A DNA stretch of 35,057 nt. Origin: a virus. Its lineage: Duplodnaviria; Heunggongvirae; Uroviricota; Caudoviricetes. The position numbers and the translations under genes were made by a program. The stretch is from the IMG/VR virus record IMGVR_UViG_2563366917_000007; one strand, written 5' to 3'. Under the pieces are notes generated by a model that was not told where the DNA came from, did no database searches, and was given only the letters and a program-made list of their open reading frames with translations. Numbering within the stretch: position 1 is the first letter of the stretch; every line of letters begins with the position of its first letter. Positions 1 through 25,576 of this stretch are shown here, piece after piece.

Positions 1-237
1 ATGATGTCTATAAATGAAGTTGTTAAACAGGACTGGCACCCCGCGCATGTTGTCGCGGCGGTGCATGTAAAAGGTTTTACTTTACGCTCTCTGTCCATTG
101 AAGCCGGTTTAAACCAGGATTCTTTAAAGAATGCCCTGTACCGCAAATGCCCAAAATATGAGCGCATTATTGCTGATGCTATTGGTGTTGCGCCGGAGGA
201 GATCTGGCCCAGCCGTTACGCTCGTAAGGTGGCATAA
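1..237 (+). CDS. ner: Ner-like DNA-binding regulator (Ner/Nlp family); may be 5'-truncated by the window edge
   Basis: 78-aa ORF directly upstream of the transposase; C-terminal IWPSRY motif and overall layout typical of the Ner/Nlp HTH family; position matches Mu ner. Confidence 0.75.
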   Translation: MMSINEVVKQDWHPAHVVAAVHVKGFTLRSLSIEAGLNQDSLKNALYRKCPKYERIIADAIGVAPEEIWPSRYARKVA

Positions 238-239
238 AA

Positions 240-2327
240 ATGTTTGTATCAGTTAATGAGCTTGTAGGGTTACCAGGTATGCCGGGAACTGCGCAAGGGG
301 TGCGGTATTCCATAAGGAAACTGGCCTCATCTGAGCATTTCAGGCGCAAACGTGCGGGTTCAAAAACCATTGAATACAGCATCGACTGCCTCCCTCCGGT
401 TACACAACGGGCGTTACGTGAGCGACATGTAGCTCAACTGATGGCAAGCGCCCCGCGGGAGATAACTACCCAGCCTCCTGTAAAGCGTGAACGCAAACAA
501 AATGTTGTACAGCCTGTTGAGGCATATCGCGGTTCGCCACAATTGGTAGAAGAGCGTCTGAATGCGCTTACGGAAAATCAACGTAAAGTTGCAGAAGCGC
601 GCATTGCTCTTGTCTGTGAAGTTCTACGAATTAGCCAGGAGCCGGGATTCAGTTGTGCCAGCGCTATACGTTTTATTGTGTCGCGGTTAGCGCAGGGTAA
701 CCTGGAAGAACGCCTGGAATCTTTGGTCATTACTGCTAATGCCCGTAAAGGAAAAGAGCGAACTCTGAGCGCAATTACGCTCAAACGTTGGATAGCTGCG
801 TTTAACAAAGCACAGAATGCCGCAGAACGACTGCTGTTACTGGCACCAGGAAAGCGCGACGAAATAAAACCGGAAGAAATTAGCTGGCTGCCTGAATTTC
901 TGGCGCAGTATCGTCAGGCTAACGGCAGGCCTATGTCTGAAGCCTATGAGGATTTTGTCGCTGATTGGCAGCGTCGCCATGCGGACGAACCATACATGCT
1001 GGAGGTGATGCCTTCCTATGATGTTGTCCGGTATGCCATGAAAAAACTGCCGGAAGTGGTGAAACAAAAAGGGCGCGTTACCGGCAGTGAATACCGTCAG
1101 CTTGAAGGATTCACCCGCCGCGACTGGACAGCTATGCCGGTGAATTATGTCTGGATTGGTGACGGTCACGGTATGAAGCTGAAATGTGCACATCCGATCC
1201 ACGGGCGTCCATTCTCACCGGAAGTTACATTTGTGATCGACGGTGGAACCCGGTTTGTTGTTGGCTGGAGTCTTGACCTTGCCGAGAACGTGTTCGCCGT
1301 TGCCGGTGCGATACAGCACGGCATTCGCAACCACGGAAAACCGTTTCTGTATTACTCGGATAATGGTTCTGGTGAAACGGCTGACATACTGGACAAAGAG
1401 GTCGTGGGTATTCTGCCCCGCCTGGGGATTAAACACCCTACCGGTATTGCCGGTAATCCACAGGGGCGCGGCATTATTGAACGCCTGAACCGGACACTGC
1501 CGATGCGTATAGCCAGGAGGTATCGCACCTATTTTGGCAAGGGTGCTGACCGGGAATCGTTGCGTGTACTTAACCGTGATCTGCGTTCAGCGTTTAACGC
1601 CATGCAACAGGACAAGCCTCTGAACGACCGCCAGAAAGCTGCAATGCGCGAGCTACCATCGTGGGCGGAGCTTATTGAGGCTATTCGTGAAGGCGTGGAA
1701 TGGTACAACAACCGCCCGCATTCTGAGCTGCCAATGAAACCGAACGGGCGGCATTACAGCCCGGCAGAGTTCAGAAAAAAACGCCTGGCAGAAGAAGACA
1801 CCGAAATTGAGTGGCTGAGTGATCTTGAGCTGCGCGACATGTTCCGCCCGATGGTGGAACGCCCGGTAAGACGGTGCGAAATTCAGTGGCTGAACAATAT
1901 TTACTACGCGCCGGAGTTGCGTGACGAACACGGTCGCAAAGTACTTATCAGTTATGACATTCATGACGCCGAGCGAATTACGGTACGTCGCAAGGACGGC
2001 AGCTTTATCTGTGAGGCGATATGGAACGGCAATAAACGCACAGCCTTTGCTGTCAGTGCTGAATATCACAAACAACAGCAGCGTATTAAAGGAATGCGCA
2101 AACGTGCTGAGGAAAAAATTCGTGATGCTGAGGATGAAGGCATTCAGATACTGGAGCACAAACAGGCTGAACCCTGGCTGGATAATGTTTATCGCCCGGT
2201 TGGCAATACGGTAACCATCCAGCAACAGGATTATGAGGAGGATTACGACGAAGATTATGAACGCGATTTCAGGCTGGGTTTGCAGAAGCTTGTAGCCATA
2301 CAGGAACAGGATGATCCGCTGGCCTGA
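240..2327 (+). CDS. A: Mu-type DDE transposase (A protein)
   Basis: 695-aa ORF immediately after ner; candidate DDE triad in IGDGHG / YYSDNGSG / IIERLN segments; acidic C-terminal tail; followed by the B ATPase as in Mu. Diverged from the Mu A sequence as I recall it. Confidence 0.85.
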   Translation: MFVSVNELVGLPGMPGTAQGVRYSIRKLASSEHFRRKRAGSKTIEYSIDCLPPVTQRALRERHVAQLMASAPREITTQPPVKRERKQNVVQPVEAYRGSPQLVEERLNALTENQRKVAEARIALVCEVLRISQEPGFSCASAIRFIVSRLAQGNLEERLESLVITANARKGKERTLSAITLKRWIAAFNKAQNAAERLLLLAPGKRDEIKPEEISWLPEFLAQYRQANGRPMSEAYEDFVADWQRRHADEPYMLEVMPSYDVVRYAMKKLPEVVKQKGRVTGSEYRQLEGFTRRDWTAMPVNYVWIGDGHGMKLKCAHPIHGRPFSPEVTFVIDGGTRFVVGWSLDLAENVFAVAGAIQHGIRNHGKPFLYYSDNGSGETADILDKEVVGILPRLGIKHPTGIAGNPQGRGIIERLNRTLPMRIARRYRTYFGKGADRESLRVLNRDLRSAFNAMQQDKPLNDRQKAAMRELPSWAELIEAIREGVEWYNNRPHSELPMKPNGRHYSPAEFRKKRLAEEDTEIEWLSDLELRDMFRPMVERPVRRCEIQWLNNIYYAPELRDEHGRKVLISYDIHDAERITVRRKDGSFICEAIWNGNKRTAFAVSAEYHKQQQRIKGMRKRAEEKIRDAEDEGIQILEHKQAEPWLDNVYRPVGNTVTIQQQDYEEDYDEDYERDFRLGLQKLVAIQEQDDPLA

Positions 2328-2400
2328 ATAAAAAAACAGTCCGCGGGAACGGACTGTTAAACGAAGGAAACAAAGCTGATTTGAATAAACGGAGAATAAT

Positions 2401-3333
2401 ATGACCGATATTAATGATGTTTTCAACACGATTAACACACTTATTACTGACGGCGTAAAAACACAAAGCGCTATTGCTAAAGAAGCGGGGGTGTCGGAGG
2501 CCACTCTTTCTGAACTTCGCAAAGGCCGTTACAAAGGTGATACCGAAGGGATGCATGACAAATTACTGATGTGGCATCAGAGCTGGCAAAAAAGTCTGGA
2601 GTTACCTGGCGCACCACAACTTGTGGAAACACAAACCCTCCGTGATTTGCGCGAGCTGTTTCAGACCGTGCGTGTTATGGGCTGTATCAGCGTTCTGGTT
2701 GGTGTGCCGGGTGTTGGTAAAACCGTTGCGGCCCGTGAATACAGTAACCGTGTATCTAATACCTGGATGGTGACCCTTTCCCCTGCACACTCAACAGTGA
2801 CTGAGTGTCTGCTGGAGCTGGCAGACGCGCTGGGAATTGATAATCCGCAAAGAAATAAAGGCGCATTGACCCGCGCCATTCGCAAAAAACTGAATGGCAC
2901 ACGCGGTCTGGTTATTGTGGATGAAGCTGACCACCTGAGCATGGACGGGCTGGAGCAGTTACGCGCCATTCAGGATGCAACCGGCGTCGGGATGGTATTG
3001 ATTGGCAACCCACACCAGTTAGCCAAAGCCACACACCGGGGAACAGATGACCTTGCACGTTTGTTCAGTCGTTTCGCCAGAACAAAGCAACTACGTAAAG
3101 CCAAAAAGGCTGACGTGGTGGCAATTGCGAAAGCCTGGGGCATTGAGGGCGAAGATGAATTATCACTCATGCAGAGCATCGCGGAAAAACCAGGTGCATT
3201 ACGTGTATTAACTCATACGCTGAATCAGGCGTGGCTGGCTGCCAGCGGGAAAGGCGTTCCTCTATCCAAAGGCTACATTAAAGCAGCTTTTAAAGAGGTT
3301 TACAGCAACCCGAAATTACTGAACTGGTGGTAA
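2401..3333 (+). CDS. B: Transposition target-DNA activator ATPase (B protein)
   Basis: 310 aa; Walker A GVPGVGKT and Walker B-like VIVDEADH; N-terminal HTH-like segment; position after A; good RBS (GGAGAATAAT-ATG). Confidence 0.85.
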   Translation: MTDINDVFNTINTLITDGVKTQSAIAKEAGVSEATLSELRKGRYKGDTEGMHDKLLMWHQSWQKSLELPGAPQLVETQTLRDLRELFQTVRVMGCISVLVGVPGVGKTVAAREYSNRVSNTWMVTLSPAHSTVTECLLELADALGIDNPQRNKGALTRAIRKKLNGTRGLVIVDEADHLSMDGLEQLRAIQDATGVGMVLIGNPHQLAKATHRGTDDLARLFSRFARTKQLRKAKKADVVAIAKAWGIEGEDELSLMQSIAEKPGALRVLTHTLNQAWLAASGKGVPLSKGYIKAAFKEVYSNPKLLNWW

Positions 3334-3344
3334 GGGGATAAATA

Positions 3345-3572
3345 ATGATGTCACGAAATATAAAAATGGCAACGGATGCGCAGAACTGGTTACAGGCGCG
3401 CGGGAGTCATGTAAATGAATCATATCTCGGCGTGGCGCGTCCGATTCTTGAAATCACTTACCCACCGGTGGAACTGGTAAAAAACGCGGTCAGAATTATG
3501 GAGCATAAGTCCGGGGTGGCCCGTTCTGTATGGACGGCCCGTCTTAATGGTTGCCAGATTATCTGGAGATAA
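3345..3572 (+). CDS. Small early protein (occupies the position of Mu kil); function unknown
   Basis: 75-aa ORF with RBS, first gene after B in the early operon. Confidence 0.5.
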
Positions 3573-3574
3573 CG

Positions 3575-3796
3575 ATGTGTATTAAAGCTGAAAAATATAT
3601 TGAATGGGTTAAACACTGTCAGTGCCACGGGGTGCCGCTGACGACATATAAATGCCCAGGATGCGGTGAACAGATTATGACGCAATGCTCACCCGAAAAG
3701 GAAATTCGGGATTCCCTGACATGTTGTCCGTGGTGCAGCGCAGTTTTCTTTAAGCAGGTAAAAGGCGCGAAGGTAAAAGCCAGCGCAGTTATTTAG
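3575..3796 (+). CDS. Cys-rich zinc-ribbon-like small early protein
   Basis: Internal ATG at 3575 with GGAG RBS 7 nt upstream, ATG 2 nt after the previous stop; motifs CQCH, CPGCGE, CCPWC suggest a metal-binding ribbon. Confidence 0.5.
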   Translation: MCIKAEKYIEWVKHCQCHGVPLTTYKCPGCGEQIMTQCSPEKEIRDSLTCCPWCSAVFFKQVKGAKVKASAVI

Positions 3797-3816
3797 AATC
3801 AATAAGGAGAAGAAAA

Positions 3817-4086
3817 ATGGCAAAGGTTATCTTTGAGTTTACATGGCTGGAAAGTAGTGACAGTTGCAATGGGCGCAGAGAAGTTCTGGATGCAAAAGCA
3901 TGTCTTGCAGATATCTCGCCAACGGAAAATACCGGGCCTCATGATTTACTGGCAAATATAGTCCTGACTATGGCTCCTGAAATTATTAAAAAGGCCAAAG
4001 ATGAGATGCTGACCACTATGAAGAAAGTGGGTATGGAAGCTGAATGTGATTTAGTACCACGTCCGGTGAATGTGGTTAAACATTAA
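3817..4086 (+). CDS. Hypothetical early protein
   Basis: 89-aa ORF with strong RBS (AAGGAGAAG) in the early operon. Confidence 0.5.
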   Translation: MAKVIFEFTWLESSDSCNGRREVLDAKACLADISPTENTGPHDLLANIVLTMAPEIIKKAKDEMLTTMKKVGMEAECDLVPRPVNVVKH

Positions 4087-4106
4087 TTCGCAAAGGAACG
4101 CTGACA

Positions 4107-4526
4107 ATGAACGTCAAAATCCGAAATGAAATTCAGGCATTAATTCGAATTAAAATGCGTAATAACAATCCAGGAGAATTACGCGAGTTTATTTTCACCC
4201 GCAAAGTTTATGAGCATGGTGAAACTACTTATCTGATTACATTTGACCATTACAGCATTTGTGCGCGTTATTGTGGCGAAAACATCTCTAATGCCATCAC
4301 GTTTGGCGGTGCGTTTAACGAGGATTTATGGGAATACGTCATGGACCGGGAATACATCTGCGCATCAGACCCTGAAGCCCGTGAAATGTGGCAGCGTATC
4401 TGGCGCGATTACCGGTTAATGGCAAAAGGCTGGGCGCGCTGCTGTTATTCCTCGCTTGCCCTGAAAGCGGTTCAGTTATCGCTGCGGCATATTCCGGCAT
4501 CACTGCGCGAGCCTCTGCTGTACTGA
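4107..4526 (+). CDS. Hypothetical early protein
   Basis: 139-aa ORF, RBS AAAGGAAC upstream, same-strand tight packing. Confidence 0.5.
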   Translation: MNVKIRNEIQALIRIKMRNNNPGELREFIFTRKVYEHGETTYLITFDHYSICARYCGENISNAITFGGAFNEDLWEYVMDREYICASDPEAREMWQRIWRDYRLMAKGWARCCYSSLALKAVQLSLRHIPASLREPLLY

Positions 4527-4826
4527 ATGGTGGCTGACATGAAGTGTAATCGTAAGCGCTGGTCACGCGAAGACCGGGAATTTATCGAAGCCAACGTCGG
4601 GAAAATGACCGTTGAAGAAATGGCGGAAAAACTGAAAGTCGCCACAACCGCCCTCCGGGCACATGCCAGAAGGCACGGAATATCATTGTGTGTATACCGA
4701 ATCAGTGAACACGACAAATATTTATGTCGTGAACTTTATAAAGAAGGACTGGATATTCATGTCATTGCCCGAAAGATGGAATTAAGCAATCGAGCTGTAT
4801 CCAGCATTGTATACAGCGGATATTAA
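4527..4826 (+). CDS. Hypothetical early protein with HTH-like segments (possible DNA-binding)
   Basis: 99 aa; start abuts previous stop; segments MTVEEMAEKLKVATTALRAHARRHGIS and LDIHVIARKMELSNRAVSSIV resemble helix-turn-helix motifs. Alternative start at 4539. Confidence 0.45.
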   Translation: MVADMKCNRKRWSREDREFIEANVGKMTVEEMAEKLKVATTALRAHARRHGISLCVYRISEHDKYLCRELYKEGLDIHVIARKMELSNRAVSSIVYSGY

Positions 4827-4845
4827 TTAACAGGAGCTTTAATTT

Positions 4846-5370
4846 ATGGCTAAACCAGCAAAACGTATCAAAAGTGCCGCAGCGGCTTATGTGCCACAAA
4901 ACCGCGATGCGGTGATTACCGATATTAAACGCATCGGGGATTTACAGCGCGAAGCATCACGTCTGGAAACGGAAATGAATGATGCCATCGCGGAAATTAC
5001 GGAGAAATTTGCAGCCCGGATTGCACCGATTAAAACCGATATTGAAACCCTTTCAAAAGGCGTTCAGGGATGGTGTGAAGCGAACCGCGACGAACTGACG
5101 AACGGCGGCAAAGTGAAGACGGCGAATCTTGTCACCGGTGATGTATCGTGGCGGGTCCGTCCACCATCAGTAAGTATTCGTGGTATGGATGCAGTGATGG
5201 AAACGCTGGAGCGCCTTGGCCTGCAACGCTTTATTCGCACGAAGCAGGAAATCAACAAGGAGGCGATTTTACTGGAACCAAAAGCCGTCGCAGGTGTTGC
5301 CGGAATTACGGTTAAATCGGGAATTGAAGATTTTTCCATTATTCCATTTGAACAGGAAGCCGGTATTTAA
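4846..5370 (+). CDS. gam: Gam host-nuclease inhibitor (Ku-like DNA end-binding protein)
   Basis: 174 aa, strong RBS (AGGAG); sequence matches Mu Gam as I recall it, and the length is identical (174 aa). Confidence 0.85.
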   Translation: MAKPAKRIKSAAAAYVPQNRDAVITDIKRIGDLQREASRLETEMNDAIAEITEKFAARIAPIKTDIETLSKGVQGWCEANRDELTNGGKVKTANLVTGDVSWRVRPPSVSIRGMDAVMETLERLGLQRFIRTKQEINKEAILLEPKAVAGVAGITVKSGIEDFSIIPFEQEAGI

Positions 5371-5468
5371 TACCACCATTAATATTTAATTAATTCACAT
5401 TCTTTTAATTATGGCGCGATGCGTCAGGGGATTGCTCGCGCCTGAAACAGATTACTGAGGAATAAAAC

Positions 5469-5999
5469 ATGGTTGATGCAAAAATTCTGAATGGTGTCAG
5501 CACATTATTACGGGCTTACGGACGCCTGACCTGCGGAGTTCTGGCTGAAAAAATGAAGATGCCTCCCTCATCAATGGTGTATTTCCTGCGTGATGCGGTT
5601 GATGCCGGCGTTCTCACCGAATGCAACGGATTTTATGACGTTCCGCGCCCACGTCCGACGCCGCCTGTAAGACGAAGCGCAACTGAACAGCCTGCTGTTG
5701 ATGATGCGGTGTGGTGCAACTGGCGTCGCTCATTACCCTGGGTGGAAGGTAATACCATCCCCGCACTGGCAAAAGAGTTTGCGACGGGCGTGCTGACCTG
5801 TGAGTCAGTCCACATTGTTGCTGAGGTGGATAACAGAATGTGCGAACAGGGAATGCCCCGTTTTGTGATGGCTTATATCGATATCCGGCTGGGGCGTTTT
5901 ATTTGCAGTTCAAGCGCCTGGAATATCACCGACCATGTACTGCGTTATCTCATTCTTGATTGTTCTCCGGTTCCCGCAACGGTGCAGGAGGTGGCGTGA
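5469..5999 (+). CDS. Hypothetical early protein (N-terminal winged-helix-like region)
   Basis: 176-aa ORF with RBS (GAGGAATAAAAC-ATG); proline-rich linker mid-protein. Confidence 0.5.
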   Translation: MVDAKILNGVSTLLRAYGRLTCGVLAEKMKMPPSSMVYFLRDAVDAGVLTECNGFYDVPRPRPTPPVRRSATEQPAVDDAVWCNWRRSLPWVEGNTIPALAKEFATGVLTCESVHIVAEVDNRMCEQGMPRFVMAYIDIRLGRFICSSSAWNITDHVLRYLILDCSPVPATVQEVA

Positions 6000-6523
6000 T
6001 GTTTTTTAAAACGTCAAATCCCGCAGCACTGCTGGCATGGGACCAGTTTATGGCGGACTGCCTGAAACTACGCGAAGAAGCCCGCCATCTTGATAAGGTT
6101 CTGGGTTGTGGTTGCCGGTCAGTATTCAGCACAGATATTGGTGGGCGTCATTTTCATGGCGTGAATTTTCCGGGGAATGAGCGACCTTTCTCGCCGGAGC
6201 TGTGGACCGTACAACGGCCCGCATCAGGTAACAGTTGCAGGCCAAGAACATCGCGCATTCCTGCACATCTGCGGGAGCAGTCAAAAGAGCTGGCGAAAAT
6301 ATGGCAGGAGAATATTCCGGTCACTTATGCCCGTACTGACGCTCTCTTACCCACACTGGGACTGGATTTCAGCGCAACAATATTCGGGCCGCTCCGGTGG
6401 TTCCGTGTTGGTGATGTGATTTACGTCATGACGGGGATGACACCCGCACAGGGCTGCATGACGGAAATCCTGTCCGATGAATTCATGAAGGCAAAGATTG
6501 CGTTAAAGGGGGCCGCTAAATGA
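5999..6523 (+). CDS. Hypothetical early protein
   Basis: Start taken at internal ATG 5999 (GGAGG RBS, TGATG overlap with upstream stop) rather than ORF-track start 5960; 174 aa. Confidence 0.45.
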   Translation: MFFKTSNPAALLAWDQFMADCLKLREEARHLDKVLGCGCRSVFSTDIGGRHFHGVNFPGNERPFSPELWTVQRPASGNSCRPRTSRIPAHLREQSKELAKIWQENIPVTYARTDALLPTLGLDFSATIFGPLRWFRVGDVIYVMTGMTPAQGCMTEILSDEFMKAKIALKGAAK

Positions 6524-7188
6524 AAGAACGTGGCGTTGCTTTTAATGACGATATGGTCAGGGCAATTCTCGAAGGAAGAAAGACGCAAACACGCCGCCCG
6601 GTAAAAAATGTCGGACACGATAACTGTCTGGTTATCCATCGTAACGGTGTTTATACCCACGTTATGGATGCACCTGAGCATGGTTTATGCCCGTTCGGTA
6701 ACGTTGGTGATCGCATCTGGGTCCGTGAAGCGTGGGCAATATTAGGCAATGAGGATGGTTGCAGTGTGGACTGGAACGGCAACCTTTGTCATGGCGATGA
6801 GAAGAAGGCAGCAAGGATTTATCGGGCAAGTTGTGAACAAAAGCCTGGTGATTACGGTCTGTGGTCAATACCTGATGATGCTGACTGGAAACCTCGCACT
6901 GTGAATGAAAAGTTTGATGGCAGGTGGTGCCCATCTATCCACATGCCGCGCTGGGCGTCGCGCATTCTGTTGGGAATAACCGACGTGCGTGTGGAACGGC
7001 TGCATGATATTAGCGAGGCAGATGCGAAAGCGGAAGGCGCATTTCCGGCGACGTACAAAATTACGCCACCGGAAGCTGTTTATCGCGTTGGTTTTGGTGA
7101 TATCTGGCGCGGTATTTATGGGCAAGATAACTGGCTGTCTAATCCGTGGGTATGGGTAATTGAGTTTAAGCGTATTCAGGAAGCATAA
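6520..7188 (+). CDS. ASCH/PUA-like domain protein (tentative)
   Basis: 222 aa; N-terminal FNDDMVRAILEGRKTQTRR resembles the ASCH signature region; ATGA overlap with upstream gene. Confidence 0.45.
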   Translation: MKERGVAFNDDMVRAILEGRKTQTRRPVKNVGHDNCLVIHRNGVYTHVMDAPEHGLCPFGNVGDRIWVREAWAILGNEDGCSVDWNGNLCHGDEKKAARIYRASCEQKPGDYGLWSIPDDADWKPRTVNEKFDGRWCPSIHMPRWASRILLGITDVRVERLHDISEADAKAEGAFPATYKITPPEAVYRVGFGDIWRGIYGQDNWLSNPWVWVIEFKRIQEA

Positions 7189-7190
7189 CT

Positions 7191-7532
7191 ATGAGCAAAT
7201 CACTTAATGCACGTTGTATTCGCCGTTGGGAAGTCAGATTTAAGCCTGTTTGTGATTCAAAAGTTAGCCCTCACATGCGTAAAAGCTTTTTGCGTGGGGT
7301 GCGTGAATTAGGGCTTATTACGGCTGAAAACATGGTTGAAAGCATGGCTGAGAAAAACGCCAGGTTTGATTACGACGGCAAGGACACAGGCTGGTCACCG
7401 GAGTTTTCTAACTGGTATGCAACATGCCGAGAAAAGTATTGTAAAGAGGCCCGCGACTATCTGGATGAAGAAGTCACAAACGATGAGATCGATGAAGAAA
7501 TCAGAACTGAGCTAGAGTATTGGAATGACTAA
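7191..7532 (+). CDS. Hypothetical early protein with acidic C-terminus
   Basis: 113-aa ORF, ATG 2 nt after previous stop. Confidence 0.5.
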   Translation: MSKSLNARCIRRWEVRFKPVCDSKVSPHMRKSFLRGVRELGLITAENMVESMAEKNARFDYDGKDTGWSPEFSNWYATCREKYCKEARDYLDEEVTNDEIDEEIRTELEYWND

Positions 7533-7605
7533 TCTGGCCGATATGACCGGAAAGTGTTTCAGCGATACAAGCGGTGTGGTAGCACCGCTTTTTAAAGGTA
7601 TGATC

Positions 7606-8157
7606 ATGAGTCGCACATCCCTGATTAAATTAATCCATGTCGCCCGTCGTGATCTACAACTCGACGACGATACTTACCGCGCTTTTCTGATGCAGAAAAC
7701 GGGCAAAATCAGTTGCCGCGAGCTGACGGTAACGCAACTGGAACAGGTGCTCGATGCCATGAAAGAACGCGGCTTTAAGAAGCTGAATAAACATCCACGT
7801 CGCCGCTTTAAGGGGCATGTCACGCCCCGCGAGAAGGTATACAAAGTCTGGCAGCAGATGGCAGAAGACGGTTTTATTACCGATGGCGGTGATGTGGCGC
7901 TGGATAAATATGTTCAGCGCCTGACGGCGAAACGTAATGGCGGACAGGGTGTTTCCACGCTGGCGTGGTGTCATGGCGACACCCTGTTGATTGTTCTCGA
8001 AACTCTCAAGCAGTGGCATATCCGCTGTATTCGTGAAGCCTTTTCCCGTCACGGGCTTCCGTTGCCGGTCAGTCCGTCCGGGCGTGAACTGCGCGGCTAT
8101 GATGCCATGACGGCGGCTTATGCCCATGCCAGAAAGACACGGAGGATGGCACAATGA
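7606..8157 (+). CDS. gemA: GemA-like regulatory protein (Mu gp16 family)
   Basis: Start chosen at Met-28 of the ORF-track ORF (7525), giving 183 aa; N-terminus MSRTSLIKLIHVARRDLQLDDDTYRAFL is typical of GemA; precedes mor with ATGA overlap. Alternative starts 7525/7600. Confidence 0.7.
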   Translation: MSRTSLIKLIHVARRDLQLDDDTYRAFLMQKTGKISCRELTVTQLEQVLDAMKERGFKKLNKHPRRRFKGHVTPREKVYKVWQQMAEDGFITDGGDVALDKYVQRLTAKRNGGQGVSTLAWCHGDTLLIVLETLKQWHIRCIREAFSRHGLPLPVSPSGRELRGYDAMTAAYAHARKTRRMAQ

Positions 8158-8543
8158 CGGAAGATTTATTTGGTGATTTGCAGGATGACACCATCCTGGC
8201 ACATCTTGACAATCCCGCAGAGGATGCGTCACGCTTTCCGGCACTGCTGGCGGAGCTGAACGATTTACTGCGCGGGGAGTTGTCCCGGCTGGGTGTTGAT
8301 CCTGCCCATTCACTGGAGATTGTTGTGGCTATCTGTAAGCATCTGGGTGGCGGTCAGGTCTACATTCCTCGCGGTCAGGTTCTGGACTCGCTGATTCGGG
8401 ATTTGCGTATCTGGAATGATTTTAACGGTCGCAACGTCAGCGAACTGACCACCCGTTATGGTGTCACTTTCAATACGGTTTACAAGGCCATTCGCCGGAT
8501 GCGACGGCTGAAATACCGCCAGTACCAGCCCTCACTTCTGTAA
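8154..8543 (+). CDS. mor: Mor middle-operon transcription activator
   Basis: 129 aa (same length as Mu Mor); C-terminal HTH region shared with the downstream paralog C (WNDFNGRN... vs CQFNGRN...). Confidence 0.8.
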   Translation: MTEDLFGDLQDDTILAHLDNPAEDASRFPALLAELNDLLRGELSRLGVDPAHSLEIVVAICKHLGGGQVYIPRGQVLDSLIRDLRIWNDFNGRNVSELTTRYGVTFNTVYKAIRRMRRLKYRQYQPSLL

Positions 8544-8547
8544 ACAG

Positions 8548-8574
8548 TAAAGCCGGTTAATCCGGCTTTTTTTA
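8548..8574 (+). terminator. Rho-independent terminator after mor (end of the early operon)
   Basis: Stem AGCCGG / CCGGCT with a 5-nt loop, followed by a 7-T run, 8 bp after the mor stop. Confidence 0.6.
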
Positions 8575-8620: not shown

Positions 8621-8851
8621 ATGGGTAAAGGCTGGAATGCATCCTTTCATCTTGGCAGACGTGAGCGGCTGCGTCAGGAGGTTTTGCACCGTGTCGCCGG
8701 TGGGCCTCGGCCTTCGCCCCGCGACTATACCGGTCATGATGGCACCCACGGCAGTTATTACATGAAAGGCTGGCAGTCAGTTGATATGCCGGAAATTCTT
8801 CACCACTGTCAACGTTATAAGGAAAAATATTGTGTACAGAAAATTCAGTGA
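8621..8851 (+). CDS. Hypothetical small protein in the mor-C gap (uncertain)
   Basis: 76-aa ORF with GGGGGA RBS; lies in the region expected to carry the Mor-dependent middle promoter. Confidence 0.3.
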   Translation: MGKGWNASFHLGRRERLRQEVLHRVAGGPRPSPRDYTGHDGTHGSYYMKGWQSVDMPEILHHCQRYKEKYCVQKIQ

Positions 8852-8963
8852 TGAATGTTTCGGGCCGTCCACGCTGATTAATGCGATAAAAGTGATTGCC
8901 CTTGTGGTTCTGATAACCATCAGTGCCGTGGTGTATCTTTTTGTCTGTTAACCGGGGGAAAAT

Positions 8964-9386
8964 ATGCAGCATGATTTATTTGAACACGATCCGGCAATTC
9001 GCCAGTTAATCGGGCATATTGATAACATCCCGGCCCCGGAACTGGAATCACGCTGGCCCCGTTCAGTGGTTGATCTGATTGATGTTCTGGAAAACGAACT
9101 GAAACGCCAGAACGTCAGCAATCCCCGTGAGCTTGCCCGTAAACAGGCCGTTGCCCTGTCCTGTTTTCTGGGGGGGCGGCAGTTTTATATCCCCTGCGGC
9201 GATACTATCCTGACCGCGTTACGCGACGATTTGCTTTACTGCCAGTTCAATGGTCGTAACATGGAAGAACTGCGTCGCCAGTACCGCCTGTCCCAGCCGC
9301 AGATCTACCAGATTATTGCCCGCCAGAGAAAGCTGCATACACGACGTCATCAGCCTGATCTGTTCTCACCTGAAAGCCAGAAATAA
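8964..9386 (+). CDS. C: C protein, late-gene transcription activator (Mor/C family)
   Basis: 140 aa (same length as Mu C); paralogous to Mor; RBS GGGGGAAAAT-ATG. Confidence 0.8.
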   Translation: MQHDLFEHDPAIRQLIGHIDNIPAPELESRWPRSVVDLIDVLENELKRQNVSNPRELARKQAVALSCFLGGRQFYIPCGDTILTALRDDLLYCQFNGRNMEELRRQYRLSQPQIYQIIARQRKLHTRRHQPDLFSPESQK

Positions 9387-9477
9387 CCGACATCCTGCCG
9401 GTTATTTCCTGTCACCATAATCCCGCACCTGCCATCTGATTTTTTAGACTGCCATCAGAGCATTTTTTCAGGGAAGC
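9387..9477 (+). promoter_or_regulatory. Candidate C-dependent late promoter upstream of lys (Plys)
   Basis: 91-bp gap between C and lys; contains TCCCGCACCT (9421-9430), a 10-mer also present upstream of I. Confidence 0.4.
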
Positions 9478-23131: not shown

Positions 23132-25576
23132 ATGACCGGGAAACGCTTAAAAGCGTCAGTCATTATTGACCTTAATGGCAATCTTTCCCGGCGTTCCCGC
23201 CAGTATTCGAACCAGATAAACGCCCTGTCCCGTAGCGGGCAAAGTTCCCTTCGTGCCCTGCGTATGGAGGTTGTGCGCGTTTCTGGTGCCATTGACAGAA
23301 TGGGTTCTCTGTCAACCCGTACATTCCGAATGCTGTCAGCCGGGGCGCTGGGTATCGCTGGCGTGGGTTACACCGCCAATAAACTGTTTATTGGTGCAGC
23401 CGCCCAGCGTGAGCAACAGATCATCGCCATGAACTCGCTGTATCACGGCGATAAGGTCAGAGCGCAGGCCATGATGGCCTGGGCAAAGCAGAACGCGAAG
23501 GACACCACGTGGGGGCTGAGTGGTGTTCTTGATGAGATCCGTTCGTCGAAAGGCTTCGGCATGACGGATGAACAGACGAAACAGTTCATCACCATGTTGC
23601 AGGATCAGGGGGCCATGCACGGCTGGGATTTACCCACTGCACAGGGTGCCTCACTGCAACTGAAACAGATGTTTGCCCGCCAGCAAATCACAGCGGCGGA
23701 TGCCAACCTGCTGACCGGTTACGGTATCAACGTTTATCAGGCGCTGGCTGATGCAACGGGAACGGACGTTAAAAAAATCCGTGATCTGGGTACAAAGGGC
23801 AAGCTGGGCATGAAATCCATTCTGACGGTATTCAGAACGCTGTCAGAACAGTCAAAAGGTGCACAGGCCAGTGCGATGAACTCCTGGGACGGGATGTTCG
23901 CCCAGATGGAAGCCAACCTGCTTGAATTTCGCATAAAGGTGGCAAACAGCGGCCCCTTTGAAGAAATCAAGAACGAGATGCGCCGGGTGCTTAACTGGCA
24001 CGACATGGCGGATAAATCCGGGGAACTTGACGCACTGGCAGAAAACATTGGTCAGAAATTTCTGACCACGTTCAGAACGGTAAAAATCGCGGCGCAGGAA
24101 TTATGGCGCTGGCTGAAACCGGGCAAGGATGCGCTGGTATGGGTTGACCAGAATATTGTCAGCCTGAAAAAACTGGCTGCTGTTCTGGTGTCCGTCTGGC
24201 TTGCCAACAAAGCTCTGAGGACAGGCTGGGCCGTGGCTAAACCCTCATGGCAGGTTGCCAGTTATCCGTTTAAAACCGGGCGTCGTATGTGGCGCCGGAT
24301 GCGGAACCGCAAACGTGAGCAGGCAGGTCTGCCGATCCCGGCGCCCATGACAACTGAGGCGCTGTTGCAGGGCACCGGCATTCAGCGTGTGTTTGTCATC
24401 AACTGGCCCCGTGGATTTGGTGGCTACGGGAGTGGCGGCGGTCGTCGCGGACGCGGCGGCGGAAGAACGCCCCCGCTGTTACCCCGCCAGCCGCTGTTGC
24501 TGCCCGGGCCACGACCACTGCCATTACCTGCACCACGCCCTGTGCCGGCATTACCCCCACCCGGCGTTCCGGCAGCAGCACGCCCCGCGCCACGACCTTT
24601 ACCCGGTAAATCCGGTCTTCCGGGCAGGTTTGCAGGCAGCGCTGCCGCGCAGCAGGTTACGGGAGCGGCAGGAACGCTGGCGAATGCCGGGCGTACTGTC
24701 AGCAGACTGCTTTCCGGTGCCGGAAACAGGCAGACCGCGCCATCTCCGGTCGTCCCGGTAACACCGCGCCCCGCGCCCCGCCCTTTGCCCGCTAAATCCG
24801 GTCTTCCGGGCAGGCTGGCAGGCAGCGCTGCCGCGCAGCAGGTTACGGGAGCGGCAGGAACGCTGGCGGATGCCGGGCGTACTGTCAGCAGACTGCTTTC
24901 CGGTGCCGGAAACAGGCAGCCCGCGCCATCTCCGGTCGTCCCGGTAACACCGCGCCCTGCGCCACGCCCTTTGCCCGCTAAATCCGGTCTTCCGGGCAGG
25001 CTGGCAGGCAGCGCTGCCGGGCAACGGGTTACGGGAACGGTCGGAAAACTGGCTGATGTCGGGCGTGCCGTTGGCGGGTGGTTTTCCGGTATCGGGAACA
25101 GACTCGCAGACAGCGCAATCGGTAGGGTTGTGACAAAAGGTGCCGGGGCGCTGGGCTGGATGGGGAAAGGTGCCGGTCGTGCCCTGTCACGTCTGGGTGG
25201 CCCGGTAATGGGGGCACTCCAGCTTGCCCCCGTCCTGATGGATGAGCAGGCGTCAACCCATGAAAAAGCAGGCGCAATTGGCAGTACAGCCGGTGCATGG
25301 CTCGGCGGTGCCGTTGGCAGCCTTGCCGGACCGCTGGGTACGGTTGCCGGTGCCACGTTGGGCAGTGTCGCCGGGGAGTATCTGGGCGGTTTTGTAACCG
25401 ACCTGTATCAGAAATGGACGGCCCCGGATAAGGAACCGCAGGAACAAAAAGTGAATGCGGAAGCCTCGCTGCGCGTCGAACTTGGCGAGGGGTTACGTCT
25501 GACCAGTTCCCGCGTCACCGAGGACGGTATGGGGCTGAATATTTACGCGGGCGATAACTACATTACAGGCTGGTAA
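23132..25576 (+). CDS. Y: Tail tape measure protein
   Basis: Start at ATG 23132 (RBS AGGAAAT) rather than ORF-track 23039; ~814 aa; helical N-terminal half, Gly/Pro-rich low-complexity C-terminal half. Confidence 0.8.
24581..25080 (+). repeat. 186-bp near-perfect tandem repeat (~2.7 copies) inside the tape measure gene
   Basis: Anchor TAAATCCGGTCTTCCGGG recurs at 24607, 24793 and 24979 (period 186 bp = 62 codons); encoded copies differ at only a few residues. Confidence 0.85.

Follow-up and report, generated by a model that had tools for sequence, protein, structure and literature searches.

Two exchangeable cargo slots in the semi-essential early region of a Mu-like prophage, and a candidate ASCH-fold protein of the P1 PmgT family in one of them

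The subject of this study is a block of ten genes at positions 3345-7532 of a 35,057-nucleotide stretch of viral DNA (Caudoviricetes; IMG/VR virus record IMGVR_UViG_2563366917_000007), the whole of which is called the window below. A sequence-only reading had described the block as the semi-essential early region of a transposable phage, with ten plus-strand open reading frames (ORFs) between the genes for transposition protein B and GemA. All ten ORFs were found at those positions, and the comparison with phage Mu makes it almost certain that they form the semi-essential (SE) early region of a Muvirus prophage in which two slots have been swapped. It is not uniform, as that reading had treated it, but consists of eight conserved Mu genes and two hypervariable slots. 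The larger slot, between gp12 and gemA, carries a two-gene cassette in place of three Mu genes, and the first gene of the cassette encodes a relative of P1 PmgT with a predicted ASCH-type fold. Taken as a whole, an SE region with two cargo slots, together with the roles proposed below for ORF3, ORF9 and ORF10, is likely to be the best explanation of the locus.

The assignment to Mu is supported by sequence identity, position and gene content. The DNA of 3345-6483 is 92-96% identical to that of Mu, D108, SfMu and the Yersinia Mu-like phages (megablast against phage genomes). The Mu RefSeq annotation was then mapped onto the window by tblastn, which gives the amino acid identities quoted for the individual ORFs. 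Eight of the ten ORFs are Mu orthologues, namely Kil, gp6, a diverged gp7, gp8, gp9, Gam, gp11 and gp12, and kil, gam and the orthologues of the conserved E-series ORFs show 88.5-100% amino acid identity to Mu. The block is flanked on the left by transposition protein B, an AAA+ protein (2401-3333; Pfam Phage-MuB_C, E 5.2e-24, plus AAA domains), and on the right by GemA (7525-8157; Pfam GemA, E 3.6e-30; 95% amino acid identity to Mu GemA over residues 21-210), with Mor (8154-8543) to the right of GemA, all on the plus strand. Compared with the SE region of Mu (kil, gp6-gp9, gam, gp11-gp15; NC_000929 4315-8162), the block has the same place between B and gemA, the same gene order and strand, eight orthologues, and about 96% DNA identity over 69-75% of its length. 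It differs in that gp7 is replaced by a remote family member, an allele also carried by D108, and in that gp13, gp14 and the minus-strand gp15 are absent, with ORF9 and ORF10 in their place. In Mu the SE region comprises 14 ORFs on the long early Pe transcript, with functions described as "largely uncharacterized", and it is dispensable for plaque formation (PMC3325207; PMC3820752). As a whole it is nevertheless lethal to the host, and its deletion abolishes the lethal effect (PMC3325207).

Where does the block depart from Mu? Slot 1 (3837-4091) lies around the gp7 gene, where the blastn alignment to Mu ends at 3836 and restarts at 4092. Slot 2 (6487-7564) lies between gp12 and gemA and has no DNA identity to Mu or D108; of the two, it alone holds genes absent from Mu. 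Of 5,426 complete E. coli genomes surveyed, about 90 have a Mu-like early region. Among these, the interval between gp6 and gp8 occurs in at least four configurations. For slot 2, at least five gene sets other than that of the window were seen in Mu-like prophages of E. coli. It is occupied by gp13, gp14 and a minus-strand gp15 in Mu, while in other E. coli prophages it holds gp13, an extra 102-aa gene, gp14 and gp15; or gp13 alone; or gp13 with a 103-aa gene and a minus-strand DUF2513 gene; or a different gp12 followed by two other genes. The cassette of the window, ORF9 with ORF10, stands in a Mu-like context in only 8 of the 5,426 genomes, and it recurs in 48-kb phage-plasmids at 89% DNA identity. 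Since alternative gene sets are found at both slots and the cassette is so rare, we regard the block as a conserved scaffold with two cargo positions. Judged by these comparisons, the region has two recombination hot spots at which accessory cargo is exchanged.

What does the cargo of slot 2 encode? ORF9 (6520-7188, plus strand, 222 aa; phrog_874, E 3.9e-86) is a full-length homologue of P1 PmgT (P1_gp095), with 64.6% amino acid identity over 211 residues, and a protein encoded on the 48-kb phage-plasmid pGMI14-004_3 shares 91% identity with it. The PmgT family is large, with at least 8,000 protein clusters at E <1e-3. Its members are found in P1-like plasmids, in phage-plasmids and in the accessory regions on the recombination/integrase side of lambdoid prophages, under the source names "hypothetical", "morphogenetic protein" or "ASCH domain-containing protein". 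Both ORF9 and P1 PmgT are encoded by non-structural genes of temperate phages. They differ in that the annotation gives P1 PmgT a long extension at the C-terminus (309 aa), in that P1 pmgT stands behind its own C1-controlled promoter and not in a transposition operon, and in that P1 has no ORF10 homologue. According to a CRISPRi map, and to earlier work cited there, P1 does not need pmgT to form plaques (PMC10695390), in keeping with an accessory role.

The model of ORF9 suggests an ASCH/PUA-like beta-barrel fold, though the model itself is poor. The AF2 prediction, made with 42 homologues, has a mean pLDDT of 56, with residues 68-147 below 50, because the alignment was too shallow, every homologue used being more than 60% identical. 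The best structural match of this model is E. coli YqfB, an N4-acetylcytidine amidohydrolase (PDB 1TE7, 9KYF), and the next eight matches are all of ASCH type. The two proteins were then compared residue by residue, using a YqfB sequence identical to that of PDB 1TE7. In hhalign, residues 5-31 of ORF9 align with residues 5-31 of YqfB, and this register places the ORF9 octapeptide G19-R-K21-T-Q-T24-R-R26 at the same residue numbers as the GxKxxTxR motif of YqfB. Across the 42 relatives of ORF9, the residues G19, K21 and T24 never vary, and R26 hardly does. Further along the chain, E172, which is invariant in the family, aligns with E74 of YqfB both in a gapped global alignment (z 3.9 against shuffles) and in a MAFFT alignment of six family members with YqfB; the same two alignments match the C-terminal strands, VWVIEFK in ORF9 and YVIEFK in YqfB. 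The significance of these positions is known from mutants of YqfB, of which K21A, T24A and R26A are inactive while E74A has its activity lowered 100-1000-fold (PMC6972931). On these grounds ORF9 appears to be an ASCH-fold protein of the threonine (GKTR) subgroup.

Several results weigh against so close a kinship with YqfB. ORF9 itself gives no match to Pfam ASCH (PF04266) at E<=1, and although 25 of its 42 close relatives do match that family, the best E is 3.9e-4 and the scores lie under the gathering score. A profile search of PDB sequences with ORF9 found nothing, and the sequence search of the PDB returned only a short motif match to the TRIP4 ASCH domain (E 0.012). The pairwise similarity of ORF9 to YqfB is marginal, with z of about 2.3-3.9. 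Seven residues are invariant in YqfB-like proteins, among them Asp27, His70 and Tyr89 (PMC6972931), and these three of the seven differ in ORF9, where P27, D168 and W196 stand instead. ORF9 is also twice as long as YqfB, with an extra C-terminal helical segment and an insertion of about 70 residues (aa ~75-145) that varies between branches of the family, a further point against membership in the YqfB type.

Is ORF9 then an enzyme? We tentatively propose that it may be a catalytically active amidohydrolase of the N4-acyl-cytidine type, a reading which we hold with somewhat less than even confidence and which rests on the retained residues and the modelled fold. Such an enzyme would remove N4-acyl groups from cytidine, either as the free nucleoside or in tRNA or other nucleic acid, and the variable insertion would probably set its substrate. 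GKTR- and GKER-type ASCH proteins have both been reported to remove tRNA N4-acetylcytidine (ac4C) in E. coli (preprint 10.64898/2026.02.27.708502). A less likely explanation is that ORF9 is no enzyme at all, but a PUA-like reader of RNA or modified nucleic acid in which the GKTR residues serve for binding only, or a ribonuclease like the ASCH protein of Zymomonas (ZmASCH). ASCH domains were originally predicted to be RNA-binding, and the three differences from the invariant residues of YqfB point in this direction too. The preprint just cited also warns that in some members the deacetylase activity may survive only as a relic of evolution (10.64898/2026.02.27.708502). Against this, ORF9 keeps all four residues at which mutation inactivated or crippled YqfB, and they are invariant or nearly so in the family; moreover, the best structural match of the model is the enzyme YqfB and not ZmASCH, and ZmASCH belongs to the glutamate (GKER) subgroup (10.64898/2026.02.27.708502), while ORF9 has the threonine form. 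A role in virion morphogenesis is hardly credible, and we reject the 'morphogenetic' label. It is carried by database names only ('PmgT, putative morphogenetic function'; 'Morphogenetic protein' in UniRef), while P1 pmgT is dispensable for plaques (PMC10695390), the gene of the window belongs to the early operon, a long way from those for head and tail, it is missing altogether from most Mu-like phages, and its predicted barrel is of a type associated with nucleic acids and nucleosides.

The enzymatic reading of ORF9 can be carried one step further, to the improbable but consequential proposal that ORF9 and the PmgT family serve phages in host takeover or counter-defence as 'erasers', acting on N4-acetylcytidine or on some related N4-acyl mark. 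If this were true, ORF9 made early in infection would take the acetyl group off the wobble ac4C in the elongator tRNA-Met of the host, or would hydrolyse some N4-acylated mark that the host uses, on nucleotides or on nucleic acid, and would thereby reprogramme translation or disarm a modification-based defence. The insertion of ORF9 would set the target, and ORF10 would be a partner or regulator. Such proteins would form a previously undescribed class of phage host-takeover functions acting by RNA or nucleotide demodification.

The second gene of the cassette, ORF10 (7191-7532, plus strand, 113 aa; phrog_6675, E 4.1e-58), encodes a small acidic protein (pI 5.0) of a family with 205 clusters, in which all clusters with a named organism come from Enterobacterales. 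One match outside the expected range of hosts was seen. A 36.6%-identical ORF10-like sequence lies at 58382-58654 of OK283618.1, labelled 'Listeria phage LPML1', an odd host label for a family otherwise confined to Enterobacterales; two Hafnia phages also match, and their size is close to the 87 kb of this record. Both ends of the protein are strongly conserved, the N-terminus as MSKSLNARCIRRW and the acidic C-terminal tail as ATNDEIDEEI.NELE.WND. The AF2 model is confident (pLDDT 89, pTM 0.81) and predicts four helices. Foldseek with this model gave no match at E<=0.001 in the PDB or in BFVD, and a profile search of PDB sequences found nothing. P1 PmgU and PmgV were considered as homologues, and neither is one. 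We suggest, weakly, that the conserved acidic helix at its C-terminus most likely lets ORF10 bind a protein of the host or of the phage.

Does ORF10 belong with ASCH proteins? It stands directly after the ASCH gene in the phage of the window, in Escherichia phage PhiR68_1 and in the 48-kb phage-plasmids; in Yersinia phages vB_YpM_41/44 the ASCH match ends where the ORF10 homologue begins, and in Klebsiella phages RothC/D an ASCH domain protein is annotated at the ORF10 homologue. However, lambdoid prophages of Kluyvera and Pectobacterium have an ORF10 homologue without an adjacent ASCH gene, and P1, Dickeya and Edwardsiella have ASCH genes without ORF10. Since ORF10 can do without an ASCH neighbour in the lambdoid prophages, a functional pairing is not required. 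An obligatory coupling is thus rejected, each gene occurring without the other, and the link between them is recurrent but not obligatory. Two neighbours of ORF10 homologues in the lambdoid prophages may be recorded here. In the Pectobacterium prophage (locus L007), the accessory region that holds the ORF10 homologue also has, about 2.6 kb downstream of that homologue, a gene matching Pfam AcrIF11_ADP_ribosyl (8967-9425). In the Kluyvera prophage (locus L005), a 179-aa gene (5280-5819) lies upstream of the ORF10 homologue, separated from it by a single 65-aa ORF, and resembles an HD-domain (YfbR-like) nucleotidase by eye only.

Slot 1 poses a different question: is its gene related to the Mu gene that it replaces? 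ORF3 (3817-4086, plus strand, 89 aa; phrog_2230) occupies the same position as Mu gp7, between gp6 and gp8, and the two proteins are of one length class (87 aa for gp7), yet they share only about 23-26% identity and give no BLASTP match. The family of ORF3 is very small: clustering at 90% identity leaves only 7 groups among 5.8 billion proteins, with members in E. coli, Yersinia and Cronobacter. The ORF3 allele is also that of D108 and of several Yersinia phages, as can be told from the stretch matching each of them without a break. Mu gp7 (E6/Mup07) is gnarl2, orf63 of Silas et al., and expression of gnarl2 causes a shift of the O-antigen bands and makes wild E. coli sensitive to phage T5 (PMC12373910). 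ORF3, ORF9 and ORF10 are not among the contents of the supplements to the preprint of Silas et al. An exhaustive HMMER search with the ORF3 family profile yielded 11 representatives, down to about 30% identity. With the profile widened in this way, hhalign matched ORF3 to Mu gp7 at a probability of 84.8% (E 6.5e-6) over 73 of 89 columns. Because this match extends across the protein and the slot is the same, we read ORF3 as a remote, diverged D108-type allele of the gp7/Gnarl2 family, as far as profile comparison can indicate.

It could instead be argued that ORF3 is unrelated to Mu gp7 and merely sits in the same slot, the similarity arising from size, helical composition and the first six codons. 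BLASTP finds no alignment, the narrow ORF3 profile reached an hhalign probability of only 12%, and there is a recombination junction inside the ORF3 gene, such that the shared MAKVI start is encoded by flank DNA and the first six residues are common to both proteins partly through recombination. We think such a coincidence rather unlikely, since the probability rose to 84.8% once the remote members were added, the similarity reaches far past the N-terminus, and the multiple alignment has G40, A46, I57, G72 and a C-terminal His in common. Two points still weigh against the kinship with Gnarl2 as a guide to function: the link is at profile level only, and the work on Gnarl2 names no target for it (PMC12373910). 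If the protein of slot 1 acts as Mu gp7 does, it would alter the O-antigen or lipopolysaccharide (LPS), but its host specificity would differ. We consider a Gnarl2-like LPS phenotype of ORF3 to be about as doubtful as the catalytic activity of ORF9.

The conserved scaffold can be described gene by gene, all on the plus strand. ORF1 (3345-3572, 75 aa) is Kil, or Mu gp5, with 98.7% amino acid identity to Mup05 (phrog_2743 'Kil', E 4.9e-43); Kil is responsible for host killing and a block of division. ORF6 (4846-5370, 174 aa) is Gam, or Mu gp10, and is 100% identical to Mu Gam (Pfam PF07352, Phage_Mu_Gam, E 4.1e-42, 144 bits against a cut-off of 28.3); Gam gives linear DNA ends a Ku-like protection from RecBCD. 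ORF2 (3575-3796, 73 aa; phrog_3786, E 1.4e-40) is gp6, 100% identical to Mu over the ORF, with an alternative TTG start at 3551 that would give 81 aa. It has two CxxC knuckles and nine Cys, and although its zinc-ribbon matches are sub-threshold only, it is a probable zinc ribbon. ORF4 (4107-4526, 139 aa; phrog_3690, E 2.8e-87) is gp8, with 88.5% identity to Mup08; searches of Pfam, NCBIfam and the PDB gave it no relative. ORF5 (4527-4826, 99 aa; phrog_323, E 6.9e-29) is gp9, with 99% identity to Mup09. Its PHROG is annotated "transcriptional regulator, D5-like", and it has weak helix-turn-helix (HTH) and sigma-70 region 4 matches under the curated cut-offs. ORF7 (5469-5999, 176 aa) is gp11, 96.6% identical to Mu, and matches Pfam PF25754 Gp11_C (E 1.3e-40), a family without an attached function; a sequence search of the PDB gave no relative. 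ORF8 (5999-6523, 174 aa; phrog_2314, E 2.7e-77) is gp12. An alternative TTG start at 5960 gives it 187 aa, and in that reading residues 1-179 are 93% identical to Mu (tblastn), while the final codons, about 12, are cassette-specific DNA. The sequence search of the PDB found no credible relative of gp12, and for gp8 and gp12 no family was found beyond their PHROGs. Matches to MIF, Scone-R and SMPDL3A in the PDB sequence searches with ORF9, ORF10, gp8, gp11 and gp12 were judged spurious. Scans of all ten ORFs with Pfam, NCBIfam and PADLOC gave matches above threshold for Gam and Gp11_C only.

These results change the picture given by the sequence-only reading, which had found Gam alone assignable. 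Kil can be named as well, ORF3 is probably of gp7/Gnarl2 type, ORF5 is an HTH protein labelled 'D5-like', and ORF9 is a PmgT protein with a predicted ASCH fold. That most of the genes have no assigned function stands, and five of the Mu counterparts, gp6, gp8, gp9, gp11 and gp12, are themselves uncharacterised in the Mu literature. Nor did the ten ORFs all prove to be well-characterised Mu proteins of mundane function, as eight match Mu and these five are among them.

Is the block then a store of genes for host takeover and anti-defence, as had been expected? In the stronger form, in which several of gp6, gp8, gp11, gp12 and ORF10 inhibit bacterial immunity, this is possible but doubtful. The region is dispensable yet lethal to the host, Gam blocks RecBCD, the two slots turn over fast, as expected of arms-race genes, and ORF10, a small acidic protein, has a conserved tail that resembles an interaction segment. 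A functional screen also picked out Mu gp7 as an accessory gene that sensitises the host (PMC12373910). On the other hand, none of the ten ORFs matches a PADLOC model, save for a gp9-mad1 hit with no stretch (E 0.0099), the search being one of PADLOC models and not of an anti-defence profile library. Moreover gp6, gp8, gp9, gp11 and gp12 are 88-100% identical in amino acids between Mu and the phage of the window, unlike typical counter-defence genes; on this comparison they appear conserved and not fast-evolving. The expectation thus holds for the host-lethality of the SE region and the host-sensitising gp7, and finds no support in the PADLOC matches.

Are the ten ORFs real genes, and how would they be expressed? 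In order, they have 75, 73, 89, 139, 99, 174, 176, 174, 222 and 113 aa, all with an ATG start, and for every one there is a PHROG match, with E from 1e-29 to 1e-106. Because of these matches, and of their near-identity to phage and prophage records, they are taken as genuine genes and not chance frames. The intergenic spacing within the block is -4 to +20 nt, with the exception of a 98-nt spacer from gam to gp11. In this only long spacer there is a GC-rich hairpin at 5413-5442, GGCGCGAUGCGUCAGGGGAUUGCUCGCGCC, with no T run after it; compared with shuffles, the folded spacer shows no significant excess of stability (z -1.54). Promoter-like and terminator-like sites inside the block are in no excess over shuffled sequence. 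The only strong hairpin downstream of the block is a terminator-like one after mor (8549-8569, plus strand), with an 8-bp stem containing 5 GC pairs and a T run directly after it. The lack of internal excess and the position of this hairpin are both consistent with a single early operon, as in Mu. By analogy with Mu, the block genes would share one long early transcript from Pe with ner, A and B, so that their products would appear within minutes of the onset of lytic growth, while lysogens would make them at a low level. No Rfam family was found anywhere in the window. The true start of GemA is uncertain. The 210-aa reading begins at an ATG overlapping the ORF10 stop, and PhiR68_1 is annotated likewise, but the start equivalent to that of Mu is at 7606, and the extra 27 codons fall partly in the cassette-specific DNA (6487-7564).

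The closest relatives of the block are already public. Escherichia phage PhiR68_1 (PV340575) has the same ten genes in the same order, with 96.2% DNA identity over 100% of the block. The prophages of E. coli 1290 and S6 are 100.0% identical over 5469-8543, that of S6 is also 99.7% identical over 3345-4830, and that of E. coli 2014C-3075 is 100% identical over 6400-7650; there is no difference of substance from any of these. In such records the genes are labelled 'hypothetical protein' or, in some E. coli genomes, 'ASCH domain-containing protein'.

Some observations concern the wider mosaic of the window. The ner-A-B module next to the block is a very different allele from that of Mu: over 1-3340, Ner has 46% and B 44% amino acid identity, and the transposase aligns in two short pieces of 29-37%. 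The DNA identity of about 96% to Mu starts abruptly at 3340, seven bases past the stop codon of B, and the module is 97% identical in Yersinia phages vB_YpM_5/6. It looks like a clean swap of the immunity/transposition module. At about 8833-8835, roughly 370 nt of Mu gp19 (E19) DNA are absent, the alignment to the Mu locus jumping from 8651 to 9021; PhiR68_1 likewise passes from Mup18 to Mup20. In the late region, G+C has a local peak of 0.64 at 24001-25000, compared with about 0.55 in the surroundings, and the megablast identity to Mu-family phages stops near 24,700. The tail genes may contain a further mosaic junction here.

What does the analysis add, and what would it mean? The locus is known textbook Mu biology, and its exact gene set is already available in PhiR68_1 and several E. 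coli prophages, where it is annotated as hypothetical, so that a specialist would find the locus itself unsurprising. Added here are the two-slot anatomy, the profile-level link between the D108-type gp7 allele and Gnarl2, and the residue-level link between PmgT and YqfB. The early region of Mu exchanges genes at two narrow slots, with several cargos at each, and it is these slots that screens of accessory genes should target. The fast-diverging Gnarl2-related family in slot 1 suggests an allele-specific tuning to the O-antigen types of the host. For slot 2, the abundant and unstudied PmgT family appears, from its alignment with YqfB, to keep the catalytic residues of that enzyme, which offers a cheap and testable enzymatic hypothesis for proteins now called 'hypothetical' or 'morphogenetic'. 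This ASCH hypothesis concerns a very abundant phage family, spread through prophages and phage-plasmids.

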